DNA of 64,000 nucleotides from an uncultured bacterium (GCA_949299335.1 CASGAD010000017.1:764-64763), one strand, 5' to 3'. Shown: positions 3,714-44,347, counted from the first letter of the stretch. Translations and numbers: made by a program. Notes: generated from the sequence alone by a model not told the origin.

Positions 3714-3787
3714 ATAAATTAATTTTATAAATTATATTTTAATGTGAAAATAATAATTAAAGTACAATAATATAGTTGGTTATTATT

Positions 3788-18728: not shown

Positions 18729-18816
18729 GATAGTATGATACTTCTAAATTAATCGTTTTGAAAGTAATTATATTATATAAATATAATTAAATATGCTAAA
18801 ATTTCGATTATAAAGT

Positions 18817-26038: not shown

Positions 26039-28603
26039 ATGAGAAACAAAATTTTACTAAATAGCGATTGGCTATTTAATAAAGATTGTGTCGATATTAA
26101 TAAAATCGACGCTTCTTTATTTTCTAGTGTAGTTTTACCTCACACTTGGAATGCTTTAGATGGACAAGATGGAGGAGGAGATTATTTAAGGACGAAAGCA
26201 ACTTATCTTAAATATCTTGCTATCGCTGAAGAAGATTTAACAAAAGATCTTTATTTAGAATTTGAAGGTGTTTTTAATATAACTGAAGTATATATAAATA
26301 AAAAGAAAGCGTTTACTCATAAAGGTGGGTTTCAAAAATTTAGAGTTTATTTAAATGAGTATATTCATTTAGATAATAATGAGATAGTAGTTTATGTCGA
26401 TAATAAGCCTAATAAAGAAACATATCCACAATTTGCAGATTTTACTTTCTTTGGAGGAATATATCGTGATGTAAGCATAATCAAAGTAAATAAAACGCAT
26501 TTTGATTTAAATTATTATGGTACTAATGGGGTAAAAGCTTTAATTAAGAAGGAAAACGATAAATGGAATATTTATTTAACTTCATTTATTGATAATTTTT
26601 TAAGTAATTATGAAGTTGAGTATAGTTTAATTGATGATACAAAAGTTATTAGGTCTATAAAAGTTGATAATCCTGATAAAGAAAATATTTTAGAGATTGA
26701 TTCACCGAGATTATGGAATGGATTTATCGATCCTTATTTATATAAATTAAGTGCAAGAATATTAGATAAGGATAAAATTATTGATGAGGTCGAATTTAAC
26801 ATTGGATTTAGGACATTTTATGTTGATAGTGAAAAAGGATTCTTTTTAAATGATAAAAGCTACCCTTTACATGGTGTAAGTCGTCATCAAGATAGATTAA
26901 ATAAAGGCTGGGCAATTTCTAAAGAAGATCATAAAGAAGATATTAAGTTGATAAAGGAAGTAGGAGCAAATACTATTAGACTCGCTCATTATCAACATGC
27001 CCAATATTTTTATGATTTATGTGATAAGTATGGGTTTATTGTTTGGGCTGAAATCCCTTATATTTCAATGCATATGGATGAAGCTAAAGAAAACGCTTTT
27101 AGTCAAATGAAAGAATTGGTTCTTCAAAACTATAATCATGCTTCTATTATGTTTATTGGCTTATCTAACGAAATAACAATGAGAGGAGAATCCCCTAAAT
27201 TAATTGAAGATCATAAAGAATTAAATGCTTTAGTTCATAGATTAGATCCTACTAGATTAACGACATTAGCTCTAGTTAGTATGAATAAAATTGATAGCGA
27301 AATGTGCCGAATTACCGATGTAATTTCTTATAATCATTACTTTGGATGGTATGCTGGCAAAGTAGAAGATAATGGACCTTGGTTAGATAATTTCCATAAA
27401 AAATATCCGAATATCTCACTTGGATTAAGTGAATATGGGGCTGAAGGAATTTTAAAATGGCATTCTACTTACCCTACACAAGGTGATTATAGTGAAGAAT
27501 ATCAAGCTTATTATCATGAAAAAATGTTAGAGATATTTGCAACTCGTCCATATTTATGGTCAACACATGTATGGAATATGTTTGATTTTGGTGCAGACAA
27601 TCGCGATGAAGGAGGAGTGAAAGGAAGAAATAATAAGGGCCTAGTTACTTATGATAGAAAGATCAAAAAAGATTCCTTTTATATTTACAAAGCTTATTGG
27701 AATGATGTAGATAAATTTATTCATATTACTTCAAAGCGCTTTATTAATCGCTCACATGAAAAAATTGAAGTTAAAATATATACTAATTTAGAAGAGGTAA
27801 GTCTTTATCAAGAAGATAAATTTATCGACACTAAAAAAGTTGAAAATCATATTGCCAGATTTAATGTTAAACTTCATGATGGTGAAAATAAAATAATAGC
27901 GAAATATGGACAATTTAAAGATGAAGCAACTTTTATTAAAGTAGAAAAAGAAGATGCTTCTTATCAATTAGACGATAATGAAGGAGTTACTAATTGGTTT
28001 GACAAAGATGGCAATCCAGTTGATTTTAAATATCCTGAAGGTTATTTAAATATAAATTCGACAATTAATGAAGTAAAAAAAGTTCCTCTTGGCAAAGCCT
28101 TAATAGATTTTGGCATGAAGTTTGCTATGAAAAAATTAGGAATGGGAGAAGGTGGTTCTAACGAGGATCTTTTAAACATGGTTGGTGAAATGAATATCAA
28201 AAGAATTCTTAAATTTGCTGGTTCAAAAATTATTACAAAAGATGTTTTATTTTCATTAAACGAAATTTTAAATAAAATACCTTTAGAAGTTAAAGATACC
28301 CAAAATATATATAAATCCTTTGCATATAATTATAAAGATGAGAAACTAATTTTAAAAAAACGTACAAATTATTTTAATATCAATGCAAAAGTAGGGCATT
28401 TATTAAATAATGAAATTGTTAATGGTGTTTTTAATTTATTAATGAATTTAAAAAAGGATGGTAAAAAATTAGTCAATATTTCGTGGGTAAAGTTAGTAGT
28501 TTTAAAACATATGAAAGTTGGAACGCTTTTAAAACTTAGTAAGAATTTGCCAACAAGTTACATTTACGATATTAATGATATTTTATTAGAACTTCATAAA
28601 TAA
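26039..28603 (+). CDS. glycoside hydrolase family 2 enzyme (beta-galactosidase/glucuronidase class)
   Basis: LNSDWLF...LPHTWNALDG at the N-terminus. Acid/base region SNEITM, nucleophile region LSEYGAEG, and WNMFDF are all present. Confidence 0.9.
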   Translation: MRNKILLNSDWLFNKDCVDINKIDASLFSSVVLPHTWNALDGQDGGGDYLRTKATYLKYLAIAEEDLTKDLYLEFEGVFNITEVYINKKKAFTHKGGFQKFRVYLNEYIHLDNNEIVVYVDNKPNKETYPQFADFTFFGGIYRDVSIIKVNKTHFDLNYYGTNGVKALIKKENDKWNIYLTSFIDNFLSNYEVEYSLIDDTKVIRSIKVDNPDKENILEIDSPRLWNGFIDPYLYKLSARILDKDKIIDEVEFNIGFRTFYVDSEKGFFLNDKSYPLHGVSRHQDRLNKGWAISKEDHKEDIKLIKEVGANTIRLAHYQHAQYFYDLCDKYGFIVWAEIPYISMHMDEAKENAFSQMKELVLQNYNHASIMFIGLSNEITMRGESPKLIEDHKELNALVHRLDPTRLTTLALVSMNKIDSEMCRITDVISYNHYFGWYAGKVEDNGPWLDNFHKKYPNISLGLSEYGAEGILKWHSTYPTQGDYSEEYQAYYHEKMLEIFATRPYLWSTHVWNMFDFGADNRDEGGVKGRNNKGLVTYDRKIKKDSFYIYKAYWNDVDKFIHITSKRFINRSHEKIEVKIYTNLEEVSLYQEDKFIDTKKVENHIARFNVKLHDGENKIIAKYGQFKDEATFIKVEKEDASYQLDDNEGVTNWFDKDGNPVDFKYPEGYLNINSTINEVKKVPLGKALIDFGMKFAMKKLGMGEGGSNEDLLNMVGEMNIKRILKFAGSKIITKDVLFSLNEILNKIPLEVKDTQNIYKSFAYNYKDEKLILKKRTNYFNINAKVGHLLNNEIVNGVFNLLMNLKKDGKKLVNISWVKLVVLKHMKVGTLLKLSKNLPTSYIYDINDILLELHK

Positions 28604-30160: not shown

Positions 30161-32683
30161 ATGAAAAGTAAGTACTTATATAGTAAAGGTAAAGAAGTTT
30201 ATTTTGATGATTTAGTGATAGAATATTTAGTTGCTAAAGAAATTGCTTCACTAGATAAATATAATGAAATTGGTGAAGAAGTCTTAAATAAAGTTGTTAA
30301 GACTTTAGAAAATAGAAATATTAAAGTTAAAAAATCCATCTTATCTAATTACATTTTTAAAATATTAAAAGTGTATCGTAAAAATATTGGTTGCCCATTA
30401 TTTCAAACTTTTGAAAGTATTTTTAAGTCAACTGATATTGTTTATTTAAATGCTTATCGCTTAAAAGATCGAGTAACTTTAATTAATGACTTATCTCGTA
30501 TTTTTTTACAAACCGATATTTATATTGAAGACTACTTGCCATATGTAATTAGTGGACTTAATTCTTTTAATGAATTTAATGAACTTAAAATAAAGTCCTA
30601 TATTTTTAACTTTTTATATAATTATGACTCAGTTAAAGAAAAAGTAATTAATGCTATTAAAGAAGTGGACTTAAGTTATGAAGAAGTAGACATATCTTTA
30701 TTGTTTAAAAATAAAAAACTAATTAAATTACTTTATCGAAATGCAGTTAATACTTTTAAAGATTTAAAAGAGTTAGATAGCGATTTAATTACTCTATTAG
30801 TTTTCTTCGACTATCCTTTATTTATTAATAAATTAAAGTTAATGAAAGAAGAATTAACTAATGAAGTTTTACTTTCTATTATTAATGATGCTTTTACTAA
30901 ATTAACTAAAATTGAGTATCAGGTCTTGAGTTTAAAAGAAGGATTTAATGATACTAAAAAATATAGTAATGAAGAAATAGCTTTAAAAGTTTCTAGGGCC
31001 AAAGATAGAGTTAGAATCATTTTAAATTCTATAAATACAAAAATTAAGCAAAGTAAATTAGATGAAATTAGTTTACCTTTATTTGTAACATTTTTAAAAG
31101 TTAAAAATAATCAAAAATATCTTAGTTTTGAAGGGTTAATTTCTTATTTTAATGATGAATTAATAGTTAATAAGCTTATTTATTTATATAGTTTAGATGA
31201 CTCTAATATCTCTTATTCTAGTAACTATCATATTCTATATCTTCCTTATGAATTTAGTATTAGAAGCTATATTGATGACTTTTTAAAAGAGCATAGTTTA
31301 TATGTTTTAGGTTTAGATTATGAAGCTTCTTTTTTATTTAAAAAAGCGATTATAAAAGAAAACTATCGATTTATAGCTAATAAAAACTATTACTTAAGAA
31401 AAGGTAAAAACGAAAGTGAAATCATCGCTTTACTTTTAGAGACAGAATTTAAAGACGGCTTTAAAGTTAATGACTTAAATGTCTTGTATTTAGTTAATGA
31501 AAAGTTAATTGAAAAGTTTAACACAAGCTTTAATTTAACCAATCGTTCTTTAGAAGGAATCATCACTAAATATAATTTCACTTTAATTGATAAAGGAACT
31601 TATAAATCTAGTAAAAAAGTTGTTAAGCTAAATGAAGAATTAGTTGATAGTATTTTAGATTATATAGATTCTACTAATGGAAGCGTAAAATATGTCACCA
31701 TCTTTAATAAATTTAAAAATGAATTAAAGGAGTATGGTGTTTTAAATCAATATTACTTAAAGGGAATTATTGATTCTTATTTAAGTGAACTTTACATCCA
31801 TACTAGAGACTATATTAAGCCATTAAAATTAAAAGATTCATTTAAAAAGATGACTATTGATTACTTAAATAGTATCGATGGAAAGGTTACTTTTAATGAA
31901 TTTAATGCCTTACATAAAGAAATAAATGAATATATTTTTTTAGATGCAATTAATTCATTAAATCGTTATGTTCAATTTGAAAACGAAGAATTTATTCCTT
32001 TAAAAGATTTTGCTTTATCTAAAGAATTAATAGATAAACTTAAAGAGATTATTAATGAATATTTAAAGAAAAATTCTTTAGATTTTTTAACTTCTAGAGG
32101 TTTATTTGATTATATATTTAATGCACATAAAGAAGAGTACGACTATTTAATTAGTTTAAATATTAGTAATCACTTTAGACTATATTCTTTGCTTCATACC
32201 TTATTTAACGATTTTTATTATTATAAGCGACCTATTATTTCAATTAAAAAGTTAAATAGTCTTAATCAATTTGAAATGATTGCTAGTTACTTAAATTCTT
32301 TAAATGAATTTGACTCTAAAGATCTTTTAAGTTACATCAAAGAGTATAGTTTAAGACCTATTCAAAACTATTTAGAGTTTTATTTAGACTATTTGCCTGA
32401 TTTTATTTTAGTAGACAAAAATAAGTTTATTAAAAAAGAATTATTAGTAGTTAATGACAATAATTTACTAGAGATTAAAGATTTCTTACTTTCTTATTTA
32501 TCTACTAATGAAAAACTAGATTCTAGTGAATTTAATGCCTATAAAGCTTTGCCTTTATTAAATTACTCTTGGAATAAGTATTTACTTTTTGGAGTGATTA
32601 ATTCTTATTTATCTAATTTATTTAATTTAACTATAGTCTCTAATAGTTTAAGAAATGGTGACTATACTATTGCTTTAAAATAA
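30161..32683 (+). CDS. 840-aa cytoplasmic protein of unknown function with an internal sigma-70 region-4-like HTH
   Basis: Long uninterrupted ORF with no TM helix and no Walker motif seen. LTKIEYQVLSLKEGFNDTKKYSNEEIALKVSRAKDRVRIILNSINTKIKQ resembles sigma-70 region 4. Confidence 0.55.
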   Translation: MKSKYLYSKGKEVYFDDLVIEYLVAKEIASLDKYNEIGEEVLNKVVKTLENRNIKVKKSILSNYIFKILKVYRKNIGCPLFQTFESIFKSTDIVYLNAYRLKDRVTLINDLSRIFLQTDIYIEDYLPYVISGLNSFNEFNELKIKSYIFNFLYNYDSVKEKVINAIKEVDLSYEEVDISLLFKNKKLIKLLYRNAVNTFKDLKELDSDLITLLVFFDYPLFINKLKLMKEELTNEVLLSIINDAFTKLTKIEYQVLSLKEGFNDTKKYSNEEIALKVSRAKDRVRIILNSINTKIKQSKLDEISLPLFVTFLKVKNNQKYLSFEGLISYFNDELIVNKLIYLYSLDDSNISYSSNYHILYLPYEFSIRSYIDDFLKEHSLYVLGLDYEASFLFKKAIIKENYRFIANKNYYLRKGKNESEIIALLLETEFKDGFKVNDLNVLYLVNEKLIEKFNTSFNLTNRSLEGIITKYNFTLIDKGTYKSSKKVVKLNEELVDSILDYIDSTNGSVKYVTIFNKFKNELKEYGVLNQYYLKGIIDSYLSELYIHTRDYIKPLKLKDSFKKMTIDYLNSIDGKVTFNEFNALHKEINEYIFLDAINSLNRYVQFENEEFIPLKDFALSKELIDKLKEIINEYLKKNSLDFLTSRGLFDYIFNAHKEEYDYLISLNISNHFRLYSLLHTLFNDFYYYKRPIISIKKLNSLNQFEMIASYLNSLNEFDSKDLLSYIKEYSLRPIQNYLEFYLDYLPDFILVDKNKFIKKELLVVNDNNLLEIKDFLLSYLSTNEKLDSSEFNAYKALPLLNYSWNKYLLFGVINSYLSNLFNLTIVSNSLRNGDYTIALK

Positions 32684-33123
32684 ATTTAAACGATATTAAG
32701 ATTACTTTAATTTTAAAGTTGATATAATCAAGAAATATTTTTATTTATTAAGAATTCATAGCAAATTTAAACTTTAATTTAGTTCTATGATATATTTTTT
32801 GATATGAAAAAATAGAGGGAACAAATGATGGTAAAAGAACTAGTTTTAATATATAAAGGGGTGAATGAAGTCAATGCTACGTGTGGCATTGACATTATTA
32901 GTCTTGCTATTAAAACTAGTTCTTTTATTACTAGAAGAATTAAATTGAGCATTAGTTATTTTATTAGATCAATTTACTATTACTTTTATTATATCTTTAC
33001 TTCATTAAGAACTTATAGTTATTAACTTATTGACTACTTTATAGCTAAGTAAAGCTAATGAAGTATATTAAGAACCTTGGATTTGACTATTACAAACTTA
33101 ATGTTCTTAATAGTTAAATAGAT

Positions 33124-33287
33124 AAAATATCGACCTAGACTAACAATAATTTCTTTCCTATTAAACATATTTGGTTAACAAAGAAGTGCAAATAAATGTC
33201 ACTTTTAAATAAAAAAATGCGTTAAATTAAATTTTTCTCTACAATTTACGAAACTAAAAATTTCTGAGTTAGTCTAGGTCATATTTT
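33124..33287. repeat. inverted repeat pair (13 bp perfect, 20 of 21 with flanks) bracketing about 123 bp
   Basis: AAAATAT-C-GACCTAGACTAAC (33124-33144) against GTTAGTCTAGGTC-ATATTTT (33268-33287). Confidence 0.9.
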
Positions 33288-33288
33288 G

Positions 33289-33318
33289 AATAACTTCCAT
33301 GTTTGGAAGTTATTTTTT
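33289..33318 (+). terminator. intrinsic terminator hairpin in a region with no annotated gene
   Basis: AATAACTTCC (33289-33298), loop ATGTTT, GGAAGTTATT (33305-33314), running into T6. Confidence 0.75.
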
Positions 33319-33525
33319 ATTTTATGAAACTTAAATTTTAATTCGAGTAAATTTAAAGAAATTTCTAGTTTTTTACTGATAGAGTCTTTATTAGGGTCAA
33401 TTTATGTCATCATTAATCATAAAGAGTGTCACTATTTTGTTATTTTTATGATCTATGGTTAATTAAAGCTTATGATTTTAGCTAAAAATATTACCTTTTT
33501 AAGAAAGTTAGATTATATCTAAAAA

Positions 33526-33555
33526 TTGACAAAGCATATTTTTTAGGGGTATCAT
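33526..33555 (+). promoter_or_regulatory. sigma-70-type promoter candidate for the 17-kb operon (TTGACA - 18 nt - TATCAT)
   Basis: -35 at 33526-33531 and -10 at 33550-33555. This would give a 5' UTR of roughly 185 nt containing nested inverted repeats (TAAGACTT/AAGTCTTA and ACTATT/AATAGT). Confidence 0.4.
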
Positions 33556-33746
33556 TAAGTCATGAAAAAAGTAAAAGGGCTTAAATAATTATTTGGATAA
33601 GCAAAAAGCAATAATAATTTAAGTTTTAAGACTTACTATTCTGAAATTCCTTAGTAATAGTATGTTTAGAAAGTCTTACTTATGGGGTAAAAAAGATAAC
33701 ATATTAAAAACCTCAAGAAGTTTCTATCTTAATGGAGGAGTATAAG

Positions 33747-34559
33747 ATGAGAAAATTAAAATCGGCAAATAAAAGAAAATGGATTGTCGGAGGAACGGCT
33801 TTTTTCCTTGGAGTGATGGTATTATCGACAGGTTTTGCGACTTGGATCATCGGTATCAATGTTGCTAGTGTAGATAATGGTGGCACAAACGCAATCGTAG
33901 ATGGAACTAAAAGTAATAATTTTGAATTAAAGGTAGATTTTACAAGAGATAATAGTATTATTGTGACTGAAAAAACAAGTTCTGATAGCCCTGCTAAAAA
34001 AGGCAATTTTACATTTGTAAACAATGGATATAAAGTAGATGAGGAATATAAAGACACAGACTTTATTGTATCTGGAACAATAACTTTAACTATTGGCAAT
34101 AATTCTGATTATTATGGCAAATCAATAGAGATAGTTCCTAGTTTTAATTATAGTGAACAAGGTGGAAAAATAGATGTCGATGATGAAAATAACGGCACTG
34201 ATAATAATAAGATTGATAATTATGAAGTTACATCGTGGAGAAATGCAGGAAATTATGAATATTTAGGTTTATGCGATTCAATAGAAGTGCCTACTAAAAC
34301 TAATGGCAATTGGACTGTTACTGATGATGGAACTAATATAGTTTACAAATTTGATGGAGAAATTGAGTTATTTAAGCGGGGCTCATATTTTAGTAATATG
34401 AAACCAAGTAAGTTTTATACAAGAACAACTACACCTGATTTTGTTGTTGATGGCGAAGCGTCAACCAAAATTGCTGCCGAAATGAATAAAATGGAAACGG
34501 CATTAAATGGAAAAAATATCCATGTTATATTAACAGCGCAAGCTAAGAAAGGCAATTAG
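33747..34559 (+). CDS. exported protein, paralog 1 of 5 (SipW-class-like signal peptide)
   Basis: ATG 33747 follows GGAGGAG. N-terminus MRKLKSANKRKW plus a hydrophobic helix ending GFATWIIG. The C-terminal region GSYFSNMKPSKFY matches the family motif. Confidence 0.75.
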   Translation: MRKLKSANKRKWIVGGTAFFLGVMVLSTGFATWIIGINVASVDNGGTNAIVDGTKSNNFELKVDFTRDNSIIVTEKTSSDSPAKKGNFTFVNNGYKVDEEYKDTDFIVSGTITLTIGNNSDYYGKSIEIVPSFNYSEQGGKIDVDDENNGTDNNKIDNYEVTSWRNAGNYEYLGLCDSIEVPTKTNGNWTVTDDGTNIVYKFDGEIELFKRGSYFSNMKPSKFYTRTTTPDFVVDGEASTKIAAEMNKMETALNGKNIHVILTAQAKKGN

Positions 34560-34571
34560 CATAGGCTTTTT

Positions 34572-35363
34572 ATGAAAAGCAAGAAGAATACAAAAATTTT
34601 GGGATTATGTATCTCATTTGCATGTGTTGCAATTGGTACTATAGGTTTATCAACATGGCTTATTGGTGTTGAGGATACAAAAGAAGAATTAAGTTTAACT
34701 TTAAGCGTTGATAACGTTAATTCAACTAGCTTGATTCTTGAGGCAACGTTTGAAGATGATCAAACTATAGCAATTGCAGAACGTGTCTCATATACTAAAG
34801 GAAGTAATGATATTATTGGTACTGATGATAAAGGTGGACTTAGTATTTCAGAAAACTCTTTATCATTTTCTTTTTCTGCTTTAAATATTTATACAACTGA
34901 TGAAAATTTTGATTTGAAAAAGTATAAATTGACAATTGATGTCGCTTTGCCAGAAGAGAATAAAATAAGTGTTAAAGAAACTACTAATTCCACTACAGTA
35001 TTTCATCCAAATGAAACTGATTTTAACTATTTAACTTTTAACACAATTTCATGGGGAGGCGAAAATCTCAGTAATAAGATTTCGAAAGATAACGATTATA
35101 CTTCATCAAACGGATTATATAGATATCAATTAAATAATGGTGAGAATAATTTTAAACTGGAATGGGGCAATTTTTTTGAGCAGAAATCGCCTGTAAATTT
35201 TTATAATGAGAAATATCATGTTGTATCATCAACGTTAACCGCAGAAGAAAAAGTTTCTTATGTTAACGCGGCTGTTAATGAAATAACTACAATGAAAAAC
35301 AGATTGGAGGATGCGACTGTAAAAGTAACAGTTACGCTTGAGACTTATGAAAGCCAACAATAA
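34572..35363 (+). CDS. exported protein, paralog 2 of 5
   Basis: N-terminal basic region plus a helix ending GLSTWLIG. C-terminal FKLEWGNFFEQKSPVNFY. Confidence 0.75.
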   Translation: MKSKKNTKILGLCISFACVAIGTIGLSTWLIGVEDTKEELSLTLSVDNVNSTSLILEATFEDDQTIAIAERVSYTKGSNDIIGTDDKGGLSISENSLSFSFSALNIYTTDENFDLKKYKLTIDVALPEENKISVKETTNSTTVFHPNETDFNYLTFNTISWGGENLSNKISKDNDYTSSNGLYRYQLNNGENNFKLEWGNFFEQKSPVNFYNEKYHVVSSTLTAEEKVSYVNAAVNEITTMKNRLEDATVKVTVTLETYESQQ

Positions 35364-36099
35364 AAATAAAAAAATAATTTTTATTATCTCTTCCATTATG
35401 TGTGTTTCTGTGCTTTCTGTTGGATTATCAACATGGGTTGCAGGAATTGAAGTTAAGAATGATTCTGATTATGCAACGATTGAAGTTGATAGTGTTTCGA
35501 ACCAATCTAAATTTTTAGATATTGTATTCGCAAATGGTGAAAAGATAGTATTATCTGAAAATACGACTGGTGATGTTTGGAAAAATGATGGGTCAGAAGC
35601 TGATTTCGAACTTGATATATCTTCTAGTAGAGTAATGCTTGGAAAGGGATTAAGTGGTAATTCGCCAACCGTCTCATTATCTAAAATTGAGTTCAATAAA
35701 GAAAATTTCACTTATAATAATATAAACACTGGTATTTTTTATAATAATAATGGCAGCCAGTTATCTTATATCAAATTGAAATCTAGTTATCAAGAAATAA
35801 CATGTACTCAAATATCAGAAAATGACTTGTCTGAATCTGAAAAGAATTTGTCTACTAATTATATTTTTTATAAATTGGACACTACAAAGATTGAATTCGA
35901 ATGGGGCAGTGCGTTTAATAATGAATCGCCATGTACATATTTAAATGATGAATATAGTAAATGGATCGGAGGCGAAGGAGTTGATTCAACGAATTTAGAC
36001 AAAGCTCAAAAAATTGCTGATCAAGAAAATTTTTTAAATGTTTTTAAAAATGCTTTTGATAGCTTAAAAATGACTTTCTTTTTTACATTGAATATTTAA
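35347..36099 (+). CDS. exported protein, paralog 3 of 5
   Basis: ATG 35347 (MKANNKNKK) is preferred; the track's start at 35338 is TTG. The helix ends GLSTWVAG. C-terminal IEFEWGSAFNNESPCTY. Overlaps paralog 2 by 17 nt. Confidence 0.75.
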   Translation: MKANNKNKKIIFIISSIMCVSVLSVGLSTWVAGIEVKNDSDYATIEVDSVSNQSKFLDIVFANGEKIVLSENTTGDVWKNDGSEADFELDISSSRVMLGKGLSGNSPTVSLSKIEFNKENFTYNNINTGIFYNNNGSQLSYIKLKSSYQEITCTQISENDLSESEKNLSTNYIFYKLDTTKIEFEWGSAFNNESPCTYLNDEYSKWIGGEGVDSTNLDKAQKIADQENFLNVFKNAFDSLKMTFFFTLNI

Positions 36100-36100
36100 T

Positions 36101-36925
36101 ATGATTAAACCAAAGCTGAAAAATAATAGAAATTTTGTTGTTATTACAACGTTGATAATGATTGCTTTAGTAAGCGTTGGTTTTTCAAGTTGGATTGCAG
36201 GAAATGGCGTGACAAGCAGTAACACATCTACAATGATTAATATGGAAATCGTTGCAAATCACGTAGTTTTTAGCGAAATAATACCTTATCAAAAGAGTGA
36301 AGATGGAACTTTTGAAAAAGTTGATAAAATTGGGGATATTAAGTTTGCGCCTGAAAATGATGTGATTGATGGTGAAAGCACAAGTAATTCGAATAATGTT
36401 GAAATTCCTATTGAAATTGAACTAATTGTGTCTAATACATTAAAAATTACCCAAATCGAAATGAATTCTAATATTTCCATTGGGGATACAGTAAATAATA
36501 CTGAAGCAGGAGCTTTTAATGATATAGAAATAACAACCAAAAACTTTTTTGACAGGGAAATTGGTAAATATCAATATATATGTTTGTCTGATGTAGATAT
36601 CGATATAACATCTTTGACATATGAGGATTATAAAATTGAAGGAAATGCTACCAGTTATAAAAAATATATTATTGATTTGACAGATAAACTCCAAATAAAT
36701 TATGGAAATTATTTTAACAATCAGTCACCACAAGAATTTTATAATAATGCAATAGGATTAGCACTTAGAAATTATCAGGCAAATCAAACAGAAGATAATA
36801 AAAATAAATATCTGCTTACAGTTCAAGAAGCATATAAAGAATTAGAACTGATGAGGGAAAAATTAGGAAGTCAGAAAATTAATATAGAATTTACAGTGTC
36901 AACTGAAGAATTAAGTGAGGTATAA
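36101..36925 (+). CDS. exported protein, paralog 4 of 5
   Basis: The helix ends GFSSWIAG. C-terminal LQINYGNYFNNQSPQEFY. The start lies 1 nt after the previous stop. Confidence 0.75.
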   Translation: MIKPKLKNNRNFVVITTLIMIALVSVGFSSWIAGNGVTSSNTSTMINMEIVANHVVFSEIIPYQKSEDGTFEKVDKIGDIKFAPENDVIDGESTSNSNNVEIPIEIELIVSNTLKITQIEMNSNISIGDTVNNTEAGAFNDIEITTKNFFDREIGKYQYICLSDVDIDITSLTYEDYKIEGNATSYKKYIIDLTDKLQINYGNYFNNQSPQEFYNNAIGLALRNYQANQTEDNKNKYLLTVQEAYKELELMREKLGSQKINIEFTVSTEELSEV

Positions 36926-36927
36926 AT

Positions 36928-37608
36928 ATGAAAAAAAACAAAAGCAAAAAAATGGTATGGATTGTAAGTTTACTTACATGCGTCGGGATTGGAACACTTG
37001 GTTTTGCTAGTTTCATTTTAGGAGGTGTTACTAGTGCAACAGAACAAGTCACAATTAATGTCGGTGATGTAGTAGATAATGCAGTCGTAACTAAAATTAG
37101 TGAAAATCCAGACTTGAATATTTCATTTGATTTTAAAAACAATGGTTTAAATGAAAGTATTACTAATGGAGATAATAAAACAGAAGATTTAGAGTTTTCC
37201 TTTACATTTACAATCTCAGCGAATAAGTCTCTAACTGAATTATTGCAAAATGTTACAATTAAATTCACTGCTAACGATGATTTATTATCTTATTCTAATG
37301 GAAATTATGTTAATTTGCCTTTTACAAATTTATCAGAAAATTCCATAACAATTGAGACTAAAGAGACAACAATAAGTGGAACAAATAATGCCAAAACTAT
37401 TGCTAAATCTACATTAAATTCAAACAACATGACCTTAAGCTGTGAGGTTACTTCGACATTTGAATGGGGATCTGAATTTGATAATAAAAATCCATGTGAT
37501 TATACTGCTACTGGATGGGAAAATAAATTAAGAACATTTGGAAATTTGAAATCTCAACATAGTAATCCAAAAATTGAAGTTTTAATTCAACCAAATTTGA
37601 AAGCTTAA
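36928..37608 (+). CDS. exported protein, paralog 5 of 5
   Basis: The helix ends GFASFILG. C-terminal STFEWGSEFDNKNPCDY. A8 and A7 tracts occupy codons 2-8. Confidence 0.75.
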   Translation: MKKNKSKKMVWIVSLLTCVGIGTLGFASFILGGVTSATEQVTINVGDVVDNAVVTKISENPDLNISFDFKNNGLNESITNGDNKTEDLEFSFTFTISANKSLTELLQNVTIKFTANDDLLSYSNGNYVNLPFTNLSENSITIETKETTISGTNNAKTIAKSTLNSNNMTLSCEVTSTFEWGSEFDNKNPCDYTATGWENKLRTFGNLKSQHSNPKIEVLIQPNLKA

Positions 37609-37611
37609 TAT

Positions 37612-38688
37612 ATGGATGGTATCGAAATAATATCGCTTTTAGTAACAATTATTTGTTTATTGAGTTTTTCAATAGTTTTTACTTTTCTTTTTAGACATTA
37701 TTATTTAAGTAATATTGACAAAGTGGTAAATGGACAATTTGATTTTGATTTGATTGATATGGCTGTAATTAGGGAACAAGAAAAAAATAACAAAAGTAAA
37801 AAAGTTTGGAATATCATTAAGAACGTTTTTAGTTATTTATTTCTTGCTATTGTGTTAATATTTTTTGGATTTTCTGTTTACTCTAGAGCAACAGGAAGTT
37901 TAATATCAGTCAATAATACAAGTTTAATTGTTATCGCAACGGGCTCTATGAGTAGCAAAAACAGCTATAATGATTATCTTTTTGATAGTGATTTAAGAGA
38001 AAAATATAACTTAGATAATCAATTTAAAGCCTATGATATTATTGGAATACAATCTTATGGTATTAATGAAGAACCACAATTATACGATGTAATAGCATTT
38101 CATGGCAAAGATGGACAAATTTATGTTCATAGGATTATAACAATTAATGATAATGGTTATGTTACTAGAGGTGATACAAACTCAATTAGCGATACAAATC
38201 AGTTATATGATGGCTATTTGCAAAAGGAAAATATAATTGGCTATTATAATGGAATTGATATACCAGCTGTAGGTATTTTTGTCGTTTTTCTCCAATCCAA
38301 TTCAGGAATTATTACAATTGTTTCAATCATATATTGTCTAATTATGTTTGAACATTTTAAAAATAAATACGAAGATGTAGCTGATAAACGTACTAAGTTG
38401 CTTTTGGAAACATTAGAATATAGTTTAGATACTGATGTTGAAGCTGAAAAGAAGATGTTAAAAGAAGATTTTGATTGTATTTTATTCAACGGATATAGAT
38501 TTACCTTCTCAAGTAATAAGTTAATAAAAAAGGAAGAACTTGGTAATGAAGAGTGCGCATTAGTAAGTGAGCATATAAAATCTTTTGACAATAATGACAA
38601 CAGCAAAGAAAAAAGTGGTAGTTCTGAGAATAGATTCTTAAATAAAATTAAAAAAGTTTTTAATAAAAATAAAACCAAAAAAGATTAA
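37612..38688 (+). CDS. sipW: SipW-type (S26B, ER/archaeal-type) signal peptidase I with extra N-terminal TM region and a roughly 110-aa C-terminal tail
   Basis: Catalytic-Ser box IVIATGSMSS, His box IYVHRIITI, and TRGDTNSISD. These align with B. subtilis SipW motifs (SGSMEP, THRV, KGDNN..D). A TM helix follows the catalytic domain as in SipW. 358 aa total. Confidence 0.8.
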   Translation: MDGIEIISLLVTIICLLSFSIVFTFLFRHYYLSNIDKVVNGQFDFDLIDMAVIREQEKNNKSKKVWNIIKNVFSYLFLAIVLIFFGFSVYSRATGSLISVNNTSLIVIATGSMSSKNSYNDYLFDSDLREKYNLDNQFKAYDIIGIQSYGINEEPQLYDVIAFHGKDGQIYVHRIITINDNGYVTRGDTNSISDTNQLYDGYLQKENIIGYYNGIDIPAVGIFVVFLQSNSGIITIVSIIYCLIMFEHFKNKYEDVADKRTKLLLETLEYSLDTDVEAEKKMLKEDFDCILFNGYRFTFSSNKLIKKEELGNEECALVSEHIKSFDNNDNSKEKSGSSENRFLNKIKKVFNKNKTKKD

Positions 38689-38708: not shown

Positions 38709-40523
38709 ATGAAAACTCATTTTACAAGAAAGAACTTCATAGCAATAGCAATAATCTTTTTCTATGTATTGCTAGCGTTATTTAGTGGTCTTTGCATTGA
38801 TTCAATTAATCCTGTGTTGAAGGCAAATAATCCTATTCAAAAGATGGGATTAGCATTAGGATTTCCTGCTAATAATCCAGGATTCTGTGGATGGATATTT
38901 TTAGGGTGCGTTTCCCTTTATATCCTCATTTTTGCCGCAGCTTTTATATATGAAATGAGATTGGCAAAATACTATGAAAACAAAATTTTTACAAAAAAAT
39001 ACTCATTAATTTATCTATTAACTTTTTTAATTATATTTGGTGTTGGAATAGGGATTGCGTTAGCTGCTCAATATCCTTATGATCCTTCCTTTATGTTTAA
39101 TTCTTTCTTATTCGTAGTTGAGAGTTTGGTAATTGGGCTTTTAATTTTTCTCATCCTTGGATCAATTATAATGTTTGGCATCATGTTATATGTTAATTTT
39201 AAACATATCGATGAGCCATTTAGATTTTTTGGAAATAAAGTTAAAAATCAAGAACTTGATGAAGAAGCACAAGAGGAAGAAAATGAACAACTTCTTGAAG
39301 AACAGGGCAATCTTTCAGCTAGTTTTGGGGAAGCTTCTGGAAATGATAATAACTTTAATGGTGCTATTGCCGGTGGACAAGGAGGCAATGGTGAGGTTAA
39401 TCTCGGCAACGAAACAGTATTAAAAGATAAAGAGCGTGTATTTCCAGGATTATGCTCGATTGACTATTTCTCAATGTCAAAAGTGGACGAAGAATTTGAT
39501 GATGTTACCGACTTATCATTTTTATGTACTCAATTTAGAAATTATTTAGCAAAAAACGAAAAACTATATTTTGATATCGGAACAATAAGAGCTTTTATTT
39601 CAGGATTGGCGGCAAGTAGATTTATTATTCTTGAAGGTTTAAGTGGTACAGGTAAATCATCACTTGCTAGATACTTTAGCGATTTTATTGGAGAAGAGTC
39701 TTTCTTTGAGGCAGTACAAGCTACTTGGAGAGATAGAACGTCAATTCTCGGGTATTATAATGACTTTTCAAAAACTTATAATGAGACAGAATTTTTAAAG
39801 AGATTATATTCATCAACATTTAAGGATAATCATATAAATATAATGGTTCTAGATGAAGTCAATATTTCGAGAGTTGAGTATTATTTTGCAGACTTTTTGT
39901 CAATTTTAGAGTATCCAGTTGATAAGTGGGCTTTAAAAATTATGCAATTGCCATATGATTTTGATGCTCCTGAACATTTACAAGATGGTATATTAAAAAT
40001 TTCACCTAATACATGGTTTATTGGAACTGCGAATAAAGATGATTCAACATATACTATTACTGATAAAGTTTATGATAGAGCTATTACAATTTCTTTTGAT
40101 GACAGAAATGAACCTTTTGATGTGTTGGAAGATGTTAGTAAACTTAGAATTTCGTTTACTAAATTACAAGAATTATTTGCTGGAGCAACAAATAACGCTA
40201 AAAATAGATTGACAACGAGGGATTTAGAGAAATTTTCTATTATCACAAATTACACCTATGATACGTTCGATTTAACTTTCGGCAATAGAATTATGCGCCA
40301 AATCGAGACATTAGTACCAGTTTATGTCGCTTGTGGTGGCACAAAAGAAGAAGCTTTAGACTTTATGTTCTCTAAGAAAGTTCTTTCAAAACTTGATGGA
40401 AGATTTGAAGACTATATTAAAAAAGGTTTAACAAACCTAAAATCTCTTATTGAAAAAACCTATGGTGATGAATCGTTTAAATTATCAAAACATACAATCG
40501 ATAAATTAGTAAGAAAGTTATAG
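38709..40523 (+). CDS. McrB-family AAA+ GTPase fused to an N-terminal four-TM membrane domain
   Basis: AAGGAGA lies upstream of the ATG. Residues 1-165 form about 4 TM helices, followed by an acidic and G/N-rich linker. Walker A is EGLSGTGKSS. Walker B plus the McrB signature reads MVLDEVNISRVEYYFADFLSILE. The GTP-specificity-like segment is FIGTANKDDSTYTITDKVYDRA (NKxD). Confidence 0.7.
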   Translation: MKTHFTRKNFIAIAIIFFYVLLALFSGLCIDSINPVLKANNPIQKMGLALGFPANNPGFCGWIFLGCVSLYILIFAAAFIYEMRLAKYYENKIFTKKYSLIYLLTFLIIFGVGIGIALAAQYPYDPSFMFNSFLFVVESLVIGLLIFLILGSIIMFGIMLYVNFKHIDEPFRFFGNKVKNQELDEEAQEEENEQLLEEQGNLSASFGEASGNDNNFNGAIAGGQGGNGEVNLGNETVLKDKERVFPGLCSIDYFSMSKVDEEFDDVTDLSFLCTQFRNYLAKNEKLYFDIGTIRAFISGLAASRFIILEGLSGTGKSSLARYFSDFIGEESFFEAVQATWRDRTSILGYYNDFSKTYNETEFLKRLYSSTFKDNHINIMVLDEVNISRVEYYFADFLSILEYPVDKWALKIMQLPYDFDAPEHLQDGILKISPNTWFIGTANKDDSTYTITDKVYDRAITISFDDRNEPFDVLEDVSKLRISFTKLQELFAGATNNAKNRLTTRDLEKFSIITNYTYDTFDLTFGNRIMRQIETLVPVYVACGGTKEEALDFMFSKKVLSKLDGRFEDYIKKGLTNLKSLIEKTYGDESFKLSKHTIDKLVRKL

Positions 40524-40527
40524 TCAT

Positions 40528-41943
40528 ATGTTTAGAAAAACTTATTATTTAAAAGGATTTAATAAATTTATGTTTAGAAATTTTAAATCTAAGATGAGTT
40601 TTTCTATGCTTGAAGATTTTATTAAAAATAATAATATTGAGTTCTCAACTGTTTTTAACTATGAAGAAGTGCTTAAAGAATCAATAGAAATTAAACGTGT
40701 TGTCGACAAAATTTATTCAATAGTTTATAAGCCTCACATAAAAAGTGATATTGAAGAGGTTGTTTTAAGAAGTGAACAAGCAACATCTGTTTCTAATAGA
40801 AATTTTTTTGAAACAATAAAAGATCCGAAATTATGGAAATCAAAAGATAATGTAATGACTCCAGAATATGTTCATACAACAATAAACATTGATACAATTG
40901 ACACATACGAAAATCGATTTATCTCTTTATTGATAAGTTTACTTTCTGAAGAGCTTAAAGAGTTGTTGAGTGAGATGACTCCATTAATTCAACCATTTGA
41001 AGAAAAGATGGAATTGAACCTTTTAACATATGGTGAACATTCAATATTAAATGACTTCCCAGATAATGAAGTAATCGAGAATGTATTTACTGAAAATGAA
41101 TCCATTAAGGCAAAAGCTTATAAAACAGCAATTAAATTGTTTAAACGTATTAATATCTTAAAAGAGACAGAATTTTTTAGAATTACGTCAAAGCATAAGC
41201 CATTAGAAGTTATGCCTACAAACATCTTAATACATGATTCTTTATATAGTTATTGTTATAAATTTTATAAGAATATGTTACTTGATGATGAAAAAGATAA
41301 ATATTTGAATGATATTTATTATCATAATTATGTTGTAATTACATTAATCGACTATATTTTTAAAAATGTTAAAAAAATAGGTTCGACAATTAAAAATGCT
41401 AAATTATATTTTGATGAAAATGGCATGTTACATTTTGAAAAATTTAATTTTAGAAATGGAGCATTTAAATATTATATTGATGAAGTGTCAGACAATTATT
41501 TAAAGTGTGAAACTTTTTATTTAGGGAATGACCAAGTCAGTAAAAAAGAAACAAATATATATAAAAGTATTAACTACATTACTACAACTTATTCATTAAA
41601 TGATGAGTTTTATGCTAAATTTTATAACGACCATAAACTTAATGATTATGGATTGCTTGTTGTGACTTGCAAAAATATTTCAAAAAAGGTTGGAAATATA
41701 ATGACAATTTCGCCATATTATAACAATCACACTAGTTTAATAAGAAATTATTTTAAATCCCTGTCACTGCTATTTGACTGCGATGGAACTATATACGAAA
41801 ATGAATGTCCAGTATGCGGCAAAAAAGAAGTGGATTTCGAAACAAATGGATATATATGCCATAATTGTAAATCCAAGTATGCGATTCTAAATGAAAAAAA
41901 GAATTTACTATGGATACAGTCTTTTAGGAGGAAATCTGAATGA
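40528..41943 (+). CDS. McrB-partner-like protein (DUF2357/McrC-like N-terminal half suspected) with a C-terminal CxxC...CxxC zinc ribbon
   Basis: Sits immediately after the McrB-like gene (4-nt gap). IDTIDTYENRFISLLISLL resembles the D-T-x-E-N-R-F motif I associate with DUF2357-type McrB partners. The zinc ribbon is CPVCGKKEVDFETNGYICHNCKSKY. No clear PD-(D/E)xK motif was seen by eye. Confidence 0.45.
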   Translation: MFRKTYYLKGFNKFMFRNFKSKMSFSMLEDFIKNNNIEFSTVFNYEEVLKESIEIKRVVDKIYSIVYKPHIKSDIEEVVLRSEQATSVSNRNFFETIKDPKLWKSKDNVMTPEYVHTTINIDTIDTYENRFISLLISLLSEELKELLSEMTPLIQPFEEKMELNLLTYGEHSILNDFPDNEVIENVFTENESIKAKAYKTAIKLFKRINILKETEFFRITSKHKPLEVMPTNILIHDSLYSYCYKFYKNMLLDDEKDKYLNDIYYHNYVVITLIDYIFKNVKKIGSTIKNAKLYFDENGMLHFEKFNFRNGAFKYYIDEVSDNYLKCETFYLGNDQVSKKETNIYKSINYITTTYSLNDEFYAKFYNDHKLNDYGLLVVTCKNISKKVGNIMTISPYYNNHTSLIRNYFKSLSLLFDCDGTIYENECPVCGKKEVDFETNGYICHNCKSKYAILNEKKNLLWIQSFRRKSE

Positions 41944-42740
41944 ACGAAGAGAAAATTAATAATATTTTCGATGAAACCGATGAAAATATGACCATTTCAG
42001 ATATTAACATCCCTGAATATGTTTTAGAAGTTAAAGACTTATATAAAAGTTATGGAAGGAAAGATGTTTTAAAAGGACTAGATATTAGTGTAAAAAAAGG
42101 TGAAGTATTTGGATTTATTGGTAAAAATGGTATTGGTAAATCAACTACTATAGATTGTATTGTTGGTCTTAAAGAGCCAAATAGTGGTGATATTTTAATT
42201 TGTGGGAAGGATGCTAAAACTCAGCCTTTAGAAGCAAAGATGCTATTTGGCTATGTACCTAGCGAACCAACCACCTATGAAATGATGACTGGCAATGAGT
42301 ATTTACAATTTATTGCTTCAAGCTATGGTATGTTACAAAGTGCTTTTAACAAAAATTATGAGTTTTTATTAAAAAAATTTTCTATGAGTGTTATTGATAT
42401 GAATAGAAAAATAAAGGAATATTCTCATGGTATGAAACAAAAAATTTGCTTAATGGCGAGTTTAATTCATAATCCTAAATTATGGATATTGGATGAGCCA
42501 ACAGTGGGACTTGATATTATGGTTTATGAAGTTCTTTTAAAAATGATTAAGGACTTCGCATTATATGGCAAAACTGTTTTTATCACCTCACATAATATCG
42601 ATCTTGTTTCTAAAGTTTGTGATAGAGTAGCAATTATTAATAACGGAAAAGTTGAAGTCCTAATTGACTTAAATAAGGAACCATTAAAGAGAAGAGATTT
42701 ATCAAGAATTTTCTTAAATGTATATGGTAATCAAGAATGA
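41940..42740 (+). CDS. ABC transporter ATP-binding protein (ABC-2 exporter type)
   Basis: Walker A GKNGIGKST, signature-like YSHGMKQK, Walker B LWILDEPTVGLD, H-loop TSHN. An ATGA overlap with the upstream gene. Confidence 0.9.
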   Translation: MNEEKINNIFDETDENMTISDINIPEYVLEVKDLYKSYGRKDVLKGLDISVKKGEVFGFIGKNGIGKSTTIDCIVGLKEPNSGDILICGKDAKTQPLEAKMLFGYVPSEPTTYEMMTGNEYLQFIASSYGMLQSAFNKNYEFLLKKFSMSVIDMNRKIKEYSHGMKQKICLMASLIHNPKLWILDEPTVGLDIMVYEVLLKMIKDFALYGKTVFITSHNIDLVSKVCDRVAIINNGKVEVLIDLNKEPLKRRDLSRIFLNVYGNQE

Positions 42741-44347
42741 TGGTAATTGAATTAATAAGAAAAGAACATCTTGAAAGAAAAGAAGTAACATCAAAAAGCA
42801 AAGTTGCTAATATTTTCTCTTTACTATTAAAAGTTATATTTATTGGCTGTTTTATTGCTTTGGAGTGCTATATATTCTTTTCTTTAGACAAAAAAATAGA
42901 AAAATATTCCGAATATGGAACATTTGATTTTTTGGTCCTCTTTTTGTTTACAATGATGATTGTTAGTATTATTAGTTCGACAGTTAGAGCGAGGAAAACA
43001 CTTTTTAATCATTTAGACAATAATGTTCTTTTGCCGCTGCCAATTTCTACTGGAGAATTAATTTTTAGTAAAATTTTATACATCTATTTGCAAGAAGTTG
43101 TGACACATTTTATTGTTTCAACACCTATTTTAATTGTGTTTGGTTCTACTAGAATGTATATCCCTTACTTTTATGTATTTTCTATTTTATATCCATTACT
43201 AATTAGTTTATTTAGTGTAGGTTTAGCGTTGTTTTTTGTTGTAATATATCAGTTTATTTATCAATTAATTAAATTAAGTGATATAGTACAATTTATTTTA
43301 GCATCGATTTTAGTTATAGGATTGTGCTTCGTTTATCAAGTTGTTTTAAACTTATTTTTAAACGCACTAAGGGATTCAATGATTGGTGGTGTATTTGATA
43401 AAAACTTTATTGATTCATTGCATAACTCCTTATACTATCTTGTACCAATTTATTATTTGTTTGACTCTGTTATTAATGGCACAAACATTCTTTCTAATGT
43501 ATGTATTTTGCTTGGTTCAATCATCATTTCATTATCGTTAGGGGTTACGATTTCTAGTGTTGCATACATCAAATTAAGCAAAAATGAAATTGACTTATTT
43601 GTTAAAAGAGAAAATCAAAAAGAAATTAAAATGATTTCTCCATTTAGAATGTTATTAAAAAAAGAATTTGACATCATTTTTAAAGACAGTGGAAATATAT
43701 TTTCCTACACATCACTATTGATTATGGCTCCTTTTTTAACATATGTTGTTATTTCTAGTTTAAACACAGTCCTATATCAATCTTTAACTCAATTTTTAGT
43801 TTATTTTCCTGAGTTAATAAATGTCATTAACATCAGTTTAATAATATTATTCTCAAGTGTTATTAATAGCAGTGCATCATTATCAATGTCTCGTGAAGGA
43901 AGATGCATTCAAATAGTAAAATATATACCTATTTCACCTTTTAAACAAATATTAGCTAAATTAATAATACCAACTAGTTTATCTATTTTTTCTCTATTAA
44001 TTACTATAATTGTGATTGGAAGTTCTGGAGTAGTTTCTCCATTAGCAACATGCATGTCATTACTGATGGGTATTTTATTAATTGTTTCAAATAATATTTA
44101 TGCAATTTATATTGATATGCATGACCTAAGCGATTTCAATAATAAATTACTATTTATTAATGAATTAATATCAATAGGATTCCCTGTTTTAATCTTAACA
44201 TTTAACTTTTTAATGATTTTCTTTGGAGTCCCTTCTTATGGTATGTATCTATTATCAATTACTTTATATATAGTTTTATTTGTATCAAGTATTATTAAAA
44301 TGAAAAGTAGATCAACCAAACTTTTTAAAAGGATGGAGGTAAGATAA
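42737..44347 (+). CDS. polytopic membrane protein, presumed permease partner of the ABC ATPase
   Basis: 536 aa with at least 12 hydrophobic helices. An ATGA overlap with the ATPase gene. No named family recognised. Confidence 0.6.
   Translation: MMVIELIRKEHLERKEVTSKSKVANIFSLLLKVIFIGCFIALECYIFFSLDKKIEKYSEYGTFDFLVLFLFTMMIVSIISSTVRARKTLFNHLDNNVLLPLPISTGELIFSKILYIYLQEVVTHFIVSTPILIVFGSTRMYIPYFYVFSILYPLLISLFSVGLALFFVVIYQFIYQLIKLSDIVQFILASILVIGLCFVYQVVLNLFLNALRDSMIGGVFDKNFIDSLHNSLYYLVPIYYLFDSVINGTNILSNVCILLGSIIISLSLGVTISSVAYIKLSKNEIDLFVKRENQKEIKMISPFRMLLKKEFDIIFKDSGNIFSYTSLLIMAPFLTYVVISSLNTVLYQSLTQFLVYFPELINVINISLIILFSSVINSSASLSMSREGRCIQIVKYIPISPFKQILAKLIIPTSLSIFSLLITIIVIGSSGVVSPLATCMSLLMGILLIVSNNIYAIYIDMHDLSDFNNKLLFINELISIGFPVLILTFNFLMIFFGVPSYGMYLLSITLYIVLFVSSIIKMKSRSTKLFKRMEVR

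Follow-up and report, generated by a model that had tools for sequence, protein, structure and literature searches.

Here, we describe five tandem paralogous genes in a 64,000-nucleotide stretch of DNA from an uncultured bacterium (GCA_949299335.1, CASGAD010000017.1:764-64763; the whole stretch is hereafter called the window) whose products constitute one undescribed protein family without a Pfam or NCBIfam model. The five proteins have a strictly conserved signal-peptide end in common, and the gene directly behind them encodes a signal peptidase of the SipW/archaeal type. We propose, with a confidence that falls somewhat short of even, that the adjacent peptidase is dedicated to the cleavage of these proteins and that the mature proteins then assemble into an ordered surface polymer. 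The operon to which the genes belong probably builds a cell-surface structure.

The window is AT-rich (approximately 27% G+C) and its open reading frames (ORFs) are intact under the standard bacterial code. Five consecutive ORFs on the plus strand span positions 33747-37608 and encode products of 226-274 amino acids (aa), each with one N-terminal hydrophobic segment. Paralog 1 (33747-34559, 270 aa, GFATWIIG) is of the first-position type and has the strongest ribosome-binding site; it is followed by paralog 2 (34572-35363, 263 aa, with GLSTWLIG, LTLSVDNV and FKLEWGNFFEQKSPVNFY), paralog 3 (35347-36099, 250 aa with the ATG at 35347 as start or 253 aa with a TTG at 35338), paralog 4 (36101-36925, 274 aa) and paralog 5 (36928-37608, 226 aa), which is of the last-position type, a type that adjoins the peptidase gene in nearly every genome. 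The reading frame of paralog 1 is open from position 33732; the ATG at 33747 was chosen as its start, giving 270 aa, because a GGAGGAG ribosome-binding site lies upstream of it and the closest homolog (P0001) begins MRKLKS. Pairwise identity among the five proteins is 22-25%. Nevertheless, each of them matches a family profile made from the five paralogs and 68 homologs from other genomes (73 sequences) with E-values of 4e-41 to 3e-55, and a profile from the five alone, the search that an earlier note on this DNA had suggested, pulled out solely family members among 5.8 billion proteins. The scores against the wider family and the clean retrieval therefore argue for paralogy and not chance; chance similarity and non-coding sequence were both rejected on these profile and homology searches. 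ORF calls and profile homology thus agree with the earlier description of five tandem paralogs with a first start at 33747. The N-terminal strings reported there (GFATWIIG, GLSTWLIG, GLSTWVAG, GFSSWIAG, GFASFILG), the strand-like segments (LTLSVDNV, ATIEVDSV, VTINVGDV, TMINMEIV) and the EWG..F....P..FY motifs were all found in the translations, the last in a degenerate version in paralog 1, RGSYFSNMKPSKFY. That description overlooked two motif-bearing proteins of the same operon and approximately 13 kb more of the unit downstream.

Searched exhaustively with HMMER, 1.84 billion representatives yielded 2,260 family members at E ≤ 1e-3 and 1,894 at E ≤ 1e-10, counted in clusters at 50% identity; the best 150 of the 2,260 are all 206-320 aa long. 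Nothing significant was found for the five paralogs in Pfam and NCBIfam or for 69 database family members in Pfam, and the one member that has a source name is called "hypothetical protein". Sequence and profile searches of the PDB with the paralogs gave chance matches alone (an archaeal Pilin_N chain, E 2.6; congerin, E 0.82). Type IV pilins have a short leader and the motif G/F-T-L-I-E (a slash marks cleavage here and below), which is then followed by the hydrophobic helix. An assignment of the paralogs to type IV pilins or pseudopilins was rejected, as they have no N_methyl match and their motif follows the hydrophobic core rather than preceding it; N_methyl proteins were, unlike the paralogs, readily detected at an Acholeplasmatales locus (L018) described below.

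The signal-peptide end is the most conserved segment of these proteins, with 3.13 bits per column versus 1.12 for the body. All precursors have a basic N-terminus and a hydrophobic core of approximately 17 residues, followed by [GA]-F-[AS]-[TS]-[WYF]. Columns were counted in two sets, the 73 locus-derived and the 69 database family members: P3 is G or A (100%), P2 is F (85-93%), P1 is A, S or G (100%), P1' is T, S, A or N in nearly all members and P2' is W, Y or F (100%), which corresponds to a canonical small-x-small site and a subsequent aromatic residue. Within the window, G-[FL]-[ASG]-[STN]-[WF] is present in exactly seven of the 67 ORFs of at least 80 aa, always at residues 25-34. Besides the five paralogs, these are the products of two genes further downstream, at 47960-48703 (247 aa) and 48693-50345 (550 aa), whose homologs in other genomes retain the motif. 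A dedicated processing system is expected to look like this, with one operon that encodes both a peptidase and proteins of unrelated body that share their signal. From these alignments, we infer that the motif behaves as a processing signal and predict cleavage and its exact position.

The peptidase gene (37612-38688, plus strand, 358 aa) begins 4 nucleotides past the stop codon of paralog 5 and encodes a SipW/archaeal-type (S26B-like) signal peptidase I. It matches the model for archaeal-type signal peptidase I, TIGR02228, with an E-value of 3.7e-13 (49.6 bits, cut-off 51.85) and the SipW model NF046067 with an E-value of 2.1e-12. Among 24 orthologs, the conservation of residues S112, M113, H173, R174, G187 and D188 is 95% or higher. 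The boxes GSM (S112), H173-R and G-D188-T-N align to the corresponding boxes of Bacillus subtilis SipW (E 1e-10). Both model matches and the conserved Ser112, His173 and Asp188 substantiate the previous identification of a cognate-type peptidase gene directly after the paralogs. The enzyme is almost twice as long as SipW, with three hydrophobic segments and, at its C-terminus, a charged tail of approximately 110 aa; a PDB sequence search with it found nothing.

In the proposed pathway, the precursors would be exported via Sec and subsequently cleaved by the downstream-encoded SipW-type peptidase, most likely between [AS] and [TS]. The comparative evidence for this predicted cleavage step is strong. 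The TasA site is T-W-A/A-F, and mature TasA in the fibre structure 8aur starts at A28; aromatic P2 and P2' residues hinder LepB at this site, for which SipW is the dedicated enzyme (PMC10269814). Read as G-F-A/T-W, the family site would repeat the small/aromatic residue pattern of TasA, and its aromatic P2 and P2' residues would likewise make it a poor substrate for the general signal peptidase.

This resemblance does not extend to the mature proteins. AlphaFold2 (AF2) modelled paralog 2 with a predicted local distance difference test (pLDDT) score of 67 (approximately 85 in the core and below 50 for residues 1-51) and mature paralog 5 with a pLDDT of 80 and a predicted template modelling score (pTM) of 0.73. 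The paralog 5 model consists of approximately eight strands, short helices and a C-terminal helix that is followed by a terminal strand. The N-terminal amphipathic strand is conserved (2.13 bits), yet it is of low confidence and unpaired in both monomer models. A Foldseek search of the PDB with paralog 5 placed the TasA fibre 8aur_A first (E 1.2e-2, template modelling (TM) score 0.32, root-mean-square deviation 10 Å), AggA second and FimA/FimI fourth to sixth, all with E-values of at least 1.2e-2 and TM scores of at most 0.33, and the same search with paralog 2 returned antibody domains alone (TM 0.10). The Foldseek viral library contained no match, and a phage origin is therefore not indicated; its best entry, an unrelated viral protein, has the same E-value as 8aur_A, so that the similarity to the TasA fibre does not rise above noise. 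PF12389 (TasA/CalY/camelysin, Peptidase_M73) is present in all bona fide TasA relatives. The five paralogs did not match PF12389 at E-values up to 1, and it was not among the families matched by the 69 database members at E-values up to 0.1. An hhalign comparison of the 73-sequence family with 37 TasA-family sequences gave a probability of 19.7% over 57 columns that cover the signal peptide and first strand, and a comparison with TasA alone gave 1%. Membership in the TasA family was rejected because PF12389 is not matched and the hhalign alignment is restricted to the N-terminus. The earlier interpretation is thus partly supported: the likeness to a SipW-dependent signal-peptide end is borne out by the invariably small P3 (G/A) and P1 (A/S/G) and the invariably aromatic P2', and the SipW-type processing logic holds, whereas the implied kinship with TasA and camelysin does not.

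After cleavage, the mature proteins of 22-27 kDa would expose a hydrophobic tip (TWII), a polar linker of approximately ten residues and an amphipathic strand of the pattern h-x-V-x-V-D-x-V, followed by a beta-rich core with a W-G-x-x-F-x-x-x-x-P loop and the C-terminal helix and strand. We propose that they would assemble at the cell surface into a heteromeric structure, preferably a fibre or pilus-like polymer, with the first-position paralog as main subunit and the other paralogs as ordered minor subunits. The paralog types hold one fixed order across genomes. Orthologs of paralog 1 (type 7) take the first place in multi-paralog arrays, two-gene arrays open with a type of their own (8), and the smallest operons still have a first-type and a last-type gene, one of each; this points to distinct roles of the paralogs. 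This conserved order fits the arrangement of major plus minor subunits that was suggested earlier, and paralog 1 is the candidate major subunit. The 247-aa protein encoded at 47960-48703 could be a sixth member that acts as nucleator or anchor analogous to TapA, because it shares only its N-terminal module with the family. TapA primes the TasA filament by strand complementation (PMC10151520). Assembly is plausible by analogy and in view of the conserved unpaired strand and the fixed paralog order; both polymerisation and an exchange of strands are hypothetical, and so are the roles of the other operon genes, which may contribute to anchoring, export or energy supply (AAA+/McrC-like pair, ABC-2 exporter, 823-aa protein, lipoprotein and 550-aa protein).

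Together with the paralogs and the peptidase gene, these genes belong to what is probably a 15-gene operon that extends from 33.7 to 51 kb, with tight gene spacing (most gaps are below 30 bp or genes overlap). The best sigma-70-like match, a promoter-like site TTGACA-18-TATCAT at 33526-33555 on the plus strand, agrees with 11 of 12 consensus positions, as a consensus match only, and a terminator-like hairpin at 33288-33315 lies ahead of it. Inside the operon up to 51 kb, the sole terminator-like match is a weak 5-bp stem at 46711-46723 within the gene for the 823-aa protein. The intergenic region ahead of the operon (32684-33746) is unusually long (approximately 1 kb) and AT-rich and has a further hairpin at 32870-32893; Rfam gave no match near the operon, including this region.

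Downstream of the peptidase gene, all on the plus strand, follow genes for a membrane McrB-like AAA+ protein (38709-40523) with four hydrophobic segments (residues 10-158) and an AAA+ domain, a McrC-like DUF2357 protein (40528-41943) with a C-terminal zinc ribbon, the ATPase of an ATP-binding cassette (ABC) exporter of the ABC-2 (DrrA/GldA) type (41940-42740), and a permease (42737-44347) with 11-12 hydrophobic segments whose orthologs match Pfam 12TM_1. The conserved 823-aa protein (44348-46819) has one N-terminal hydrophobic anchor; it had no family match and its PDB sequence search was also empty. It is followed by a lipoprotein (46832-47956) with the lipobox ISSC, internal repeats and a C-terminal Flg_new-like domain, and by the 247-aa protein (47960-48703, GFSTFIIG). 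The latter has the signal peptide and N-terminal strand of the family and a different body: it matches the family hidden Markov model with an E-value of 2e-9, and the hhalign match of its type to the family (97.6%) covers the first 62 residues only, i.e., signal peptide, motif, linker and strand. Its gene keeps the position after the lipoprotein gene in other loci. The 550-aa protein (48693-50345) has the signal-peptide end GFGNF (GFGNFLVS) and an unrelated body; its homologs in other loci carry GFSSW or GFASF, and it shares only the signal with the family. In both the 247-aa and the 550-aa protein, the motif occupies residues 26-30. An ORF of 224 aa (50379-51053), which starts with GTG and encodes no signal peptide, comes last ahead of a 660-bp gap and can be assigned to the operon only with uncertainty. 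No homolog was found at E 1e-5 in related operon loci; it may be a split-off C-terminal part of the 550-aa protein, since several homologs of the latter elsewhere reach 585-805 aa, or an unrelated addition. Nine of the approximately 15 operon genes match no curated Pfam/NCBIfam family, not even weakly, and only three (those for the DUF2357 protein, the ABC ATPase and the 12TM_1-type permease) reach a curated threshold. The lipoprotein is conserved in the operon; its internal repeats are approximately 40 aa long and contain GEDG(V/K)(G/E)I. Weak, sub-threshold matches to Listeria-Bacteroides repeats (Flg_new, Flg_new_2) were observed in the lipoprotein and in a predicted surface protein beyond the operon (51713-53212), whose N-terminus is signal-like and has Cys as residue 22.

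When one genome per species was scanned with the AAA+ protein, 38 loci were recovered, 21 of which have the same order, namely two to seven family genes and then genes for peptidase, membrane AAA+ protein, DUF2357 protein, ABC ATPase, permease, 823-aa protein and lipoprotein, often followed by 247-type and 550-type genes. The arrangement was also present in all six look-ups that started from family members and, in an AAA-centred metagenome scan, in approximately 50 of the approximately 59 loci whose AAA+ gene is full-length and preceded by 3 kb of sequence or more. The carriers are metagenome-assembled genomes (MAGs) that bear the labels Bacilli, Mollicutes, Acholeplasmatales or Clostridiales and come mostly from human and animal gut samples. 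A contig labelled Bacteroides uniformis (L020, CAVCCX010000028.1) has the top best-segment identity of the AAA+ protein (74%, with 84% of the query covered) and an E-value weaker than that of L002 (69% identity); it is probably mis-binned, because all other carriers are labelled Bacilli, Mollicutes or Firmicutes. Four loci (L058, L059, L063 and L085) retain the operon from the peptidase gene onwards, with no detectable family gene upstream, where genes lie on the opposite strand in L058, the one inspected in detail; the genes for their substrates may lie elsewhere or have diverged beyond detection.

Several points weigh against cleavage followed by polymer assembly. hhalign aligns the T-W of the family with the T-W of TasA, which would make P1 an unlikely I or V and leaves the cleavage register uncertain. 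The hydrophobic stretch including the motif comprises 23-26 residues, a length that would suffice for a permanent membrane anchor. None of the paralogs matched an NCBIfam signal-peptide model at E-values up to 1, a search in which HMMER filters easily lose such short models; the family motif also differs from G-T-[FWY]-A-x-F, presumably the motif of the NCBIfam signal-peptide model TIGR04088. Sequence and structure searches link the body neither to TasA nor to any known pilin. Finally, neither ATPases nor an ABC transporter are needed for known TasA-type fibres, and the content of the operon is therefore not explained by the TasA analogy.

The length of the continuous hydrophobic stretch is compatible with an alternative, which we regard as unlikely, that the paralogs are uncleaved type II membrane-anchored surface proteins. 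G-F-A-T-W-I-I would then be a helix-packing or lipid-interface motif that docks the paralogs to one another or to operon-encoded membrane proteins in a surface coat or membrane complex, and the peptidase would process other substrates. A lipid anchor could be useful to carriers of the labels Bacilli, Mollicutes and Acholeplasmatales, as some such lineages have no peptidoglycan (PMC10868615), and oligomers of Clostridium perfringens BsaA remain membrane-anchored before cleavage by SipW (PMC11580942). However, strict small residues that are spaced as P3 and P1 with F in between are a need of a signal peptidase and not of an anchor, the motif is common to proteins with unrelated bodies, and a dedicated peptidase gene directly follows the paralogs in nearly every locus.

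Alternatively, the proteins could be cleaved and secreted without polymerising, as binding proteins, partners of enzymes or toxin/bacteriocin-like effectors. In this scenario, the paralogs would be diversified variants, soluble or loosely attached, and the ABC-2 system would provide export or immunity. It is consistent with structural matches to filament subunits that all remain below significance, with ABC-2 ATPases of this type that include lantibiotic-protection and phenol-soluble modulin (PSM) export systems, and with a window that is otherwise rich in glycoside hydrolases. Yet paralog order and type are kept among genomes with AAA+ proteins of only 44-66% identity, which favours fixed distinct roles over diversifying variants, the paralogs had no catalytic or toxin family match in the Pfam/NCBIfam scans, and the conserved N-terminal strand is unpaired in the models. 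We thus consider a non-polymerising function improbable and retain the ordered surface polymer as our preferred reading.

The AAA+/DUF2357 pair sits between peptidase and ABC transporter in a fixed position in dozens of genomes. The AAA+ protein has a weak AAA_5 match and matches the PADLOC candidate PDC-M26A (E 1.6e-32), and its partner matches DUF2357, a McrC-type domain, with 27.4 bits versus a cut-off of 23.3; a PDB sequence search with the AAA+ protein found nothing. The ABC ATPase matches mad3 (E 3.2e-24). These matches would fit a defence or mobile-element module around the McrBC-like pair, with the exported paralogs as membrane or surface sensors or effectors. In Clostridia and Christensenellales MAGs (L024-L037), conservation is limited to the C-terminal AAA+ part (query residues approximately 240-604), with DUF2357 partners of approximately 440-840 aa, many of them near 790 aa; the Christensenellales relatives are two-gene McrBC-like pairs. 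The 792-aa partner at the one locus checked (L025) matches PADLOC PDC-S18, and this pair looks like an ordinary McrBC-like defence pair. By contrast, no nuclease-type C-terminal domain was detected in the McrC-like protein of the window, and the PDC-S18 domain of the L025 partner was not found in it. The pair is also fixed inside a long operon for exported proteins in dozens of species, unlike variable defence islands, the flanks of the cluster are ordinary chromosomal genes, and no viral structural match was obtained. We therefore regard a defence module as very unlikely.

The pair also occurs in other company. An Acholeplasmatales MAG (L018, CALUXS010000007.1, 1-21599) has the same membrane AAA+/DUF2357 pair (48% identical) within six type IV pilin-like proteins of 145-1233 aa and adjacent to a gene for a PilB-like ATPase. 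The three pilin-like proteins that were checked match Pfam N_methyl, and the others have the leader KKGFTLVELLVVIAILA in common. Neither family members nor a SipW-type peptidase were found at this locus, a phmmer search with the operon proteins of the window recovered the AAA+/DUF2357 pair alone, and a metagenome scan with the L018 AAA+ protein returned no relatives. In two metagenome contigs without family genes (L099, 1874-3799; L105, 7989-9884), the pair is preceded by a secreted protein of approximately 635 aa with an N-terminal hydrophobic segment, of which the visible N-terminal part in L105 has collagen-like GDKGD repeats. Given the pilin-like cluster in L018 and the collagen-like neighbour in L099 and L105, the AAA+/DUF2357 pair may be tied to fibrous surface proteins in general.

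It is tempting to speculate, as a long shot, that the operon encodes an unrecognised machinery for surface filaments or arrays, in which subunits of a new fold are freed by the SipW-type peptidase and assembled, anchored or moved by the McrB-like AAA+ protein, its nuclease-less McrC-like partner and the ABC-2 exporter. A restriction-type motor would then have been exapted and the motor pair reused with other fibrous proteins, in carriers that would be genome-reduced, possibly wall-less gut Bacilli. The membrane McrB-like/McrC-like pair embedded in the operon in any case raises the question of a restriction-type motor recruited to an envelope function. If the fibre model is true, the family would represent a third lineage of matrix or pilus proteins processed by SipW, unrelated in sequence to TasA/CalY and BsaA, and a candidate adhesion or biofilm structure of prevalent gut organisms. 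A dedicated archaeal-type peptidase may accompany cleavage sites that are flanked by aromatic residues, which is a testable rule.

The surroundings in the window are the ordinary chromosomal context of a sugar-degrading gut bacterium, with genes for ribonucleotide reductase, Der GTPase and glycosidases, including glycoside hydrolase family 2 and 3 genes at 8930-11932 and 26039-28603. Two divergent peptidase U32 genes, one with a collagenase-type DUF3656 domain, are located at 17502-21072, a tRNA gene at 1442-1512 and a gene for a DUF1848 protein at 3776-4705. The product of 30161-32683 (840 aa), encoded shortly before the operon, has a weak sigma-70 region-4-like helix-turn-helix at residues approximately 227-299; this gene is not conserved beside the operon elsewhere.

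The searched literature, including that on SipW with Mollicutes or RF39, contained no description of the present system and none of the surface biology of its carriers (uncultured Bacilli, Mollicutes-like and related Firmicutes). Among known systems, tapA-sipW-tasA of B. subtilis likewise encodes a dedicated archaeal-type signal peptidase beside its substrates, which have small P3 and P1 and aromatic P2 and P2' residues (T-W-A/A-F in TasA versus G-F-A/T-W here), comprise more than one protein with a common N-terminal module and differing bodies (TasA, TapA) and have a mature N-terminal segment that is available for inter-subunit contacts. The two systems differ in that no similarity exists past the first approximately 57 aligned columns, themselves weak (19.7%), and fold similarity is not significant. 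Furthermore, a single major subunit there contrasts with two to seven paralogs here, the peptidase of the window has nearly twice the length of SipW and carries an additional hydrophobic segment and a tail, and the operon adds the AAA+/McrC-like pair, the ABC-2 exporter and three further surface proteins.

The operon sipW-bsaA-bsaB-bsaC of C. perfringens (PMC11580942) also combines a SipW-type peptidase with several secreted substrates, including paralogs with unequal roles (BsaA polymerises and BsaB does not, comparable to the paralog types here) and a non-homologous third substrate, and a separate envelope machinery, there type IV pilus proteins, takes part in export. However, BsaA and BsaB are remote TasA homologs and the present family is not, isopeptide-bond residues could not be identified in the latter, and its accessory machinery is operon-encoded and of another kind. 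Archaeal AbpA/AbpB pili and donor-strand filaments (threads, chaperone-usher pili) resemble the proposed structure in their Sec-exported, beta-rich subunits of approximately 20-25 kDa with an N-terminal strand, AbpA/AbpB in addition in operons of several genes that encode a second, larger secreted partner (PMC9245690), and donor-strand filaments in the non-significant ranks of AggA (second) and FimA/FimI (fourth to sixth) in the Foldseek PDB list. Yet all structural matches have E-values of at least 1e-2 and TM scores of at most 0.33, AbpA is processed by the general signal peptidase, and the chaperone and usher of chaperone-usher pili have no counterpart in the present operon. Finally, McrBC-type AAA+/DUF2357 pairs (PDC-M26A, PDC-S18) have the AAA+ core and DUF2357 domain in common with the genes at 38709-41943, whereas the AAA+ protein described here has four N-terminal membrane segments, its partner is without the PDC-S18 C-terminal domain, and the pair is embedded among genes for exported proteins or, in the Acholeplasmatales locus L018, among type IV pilin-like genes. 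Viewed against these systems, the operon follows the theme of SipW plus cognate substrates and has a realistic chance of belonging to a new surface machinery.

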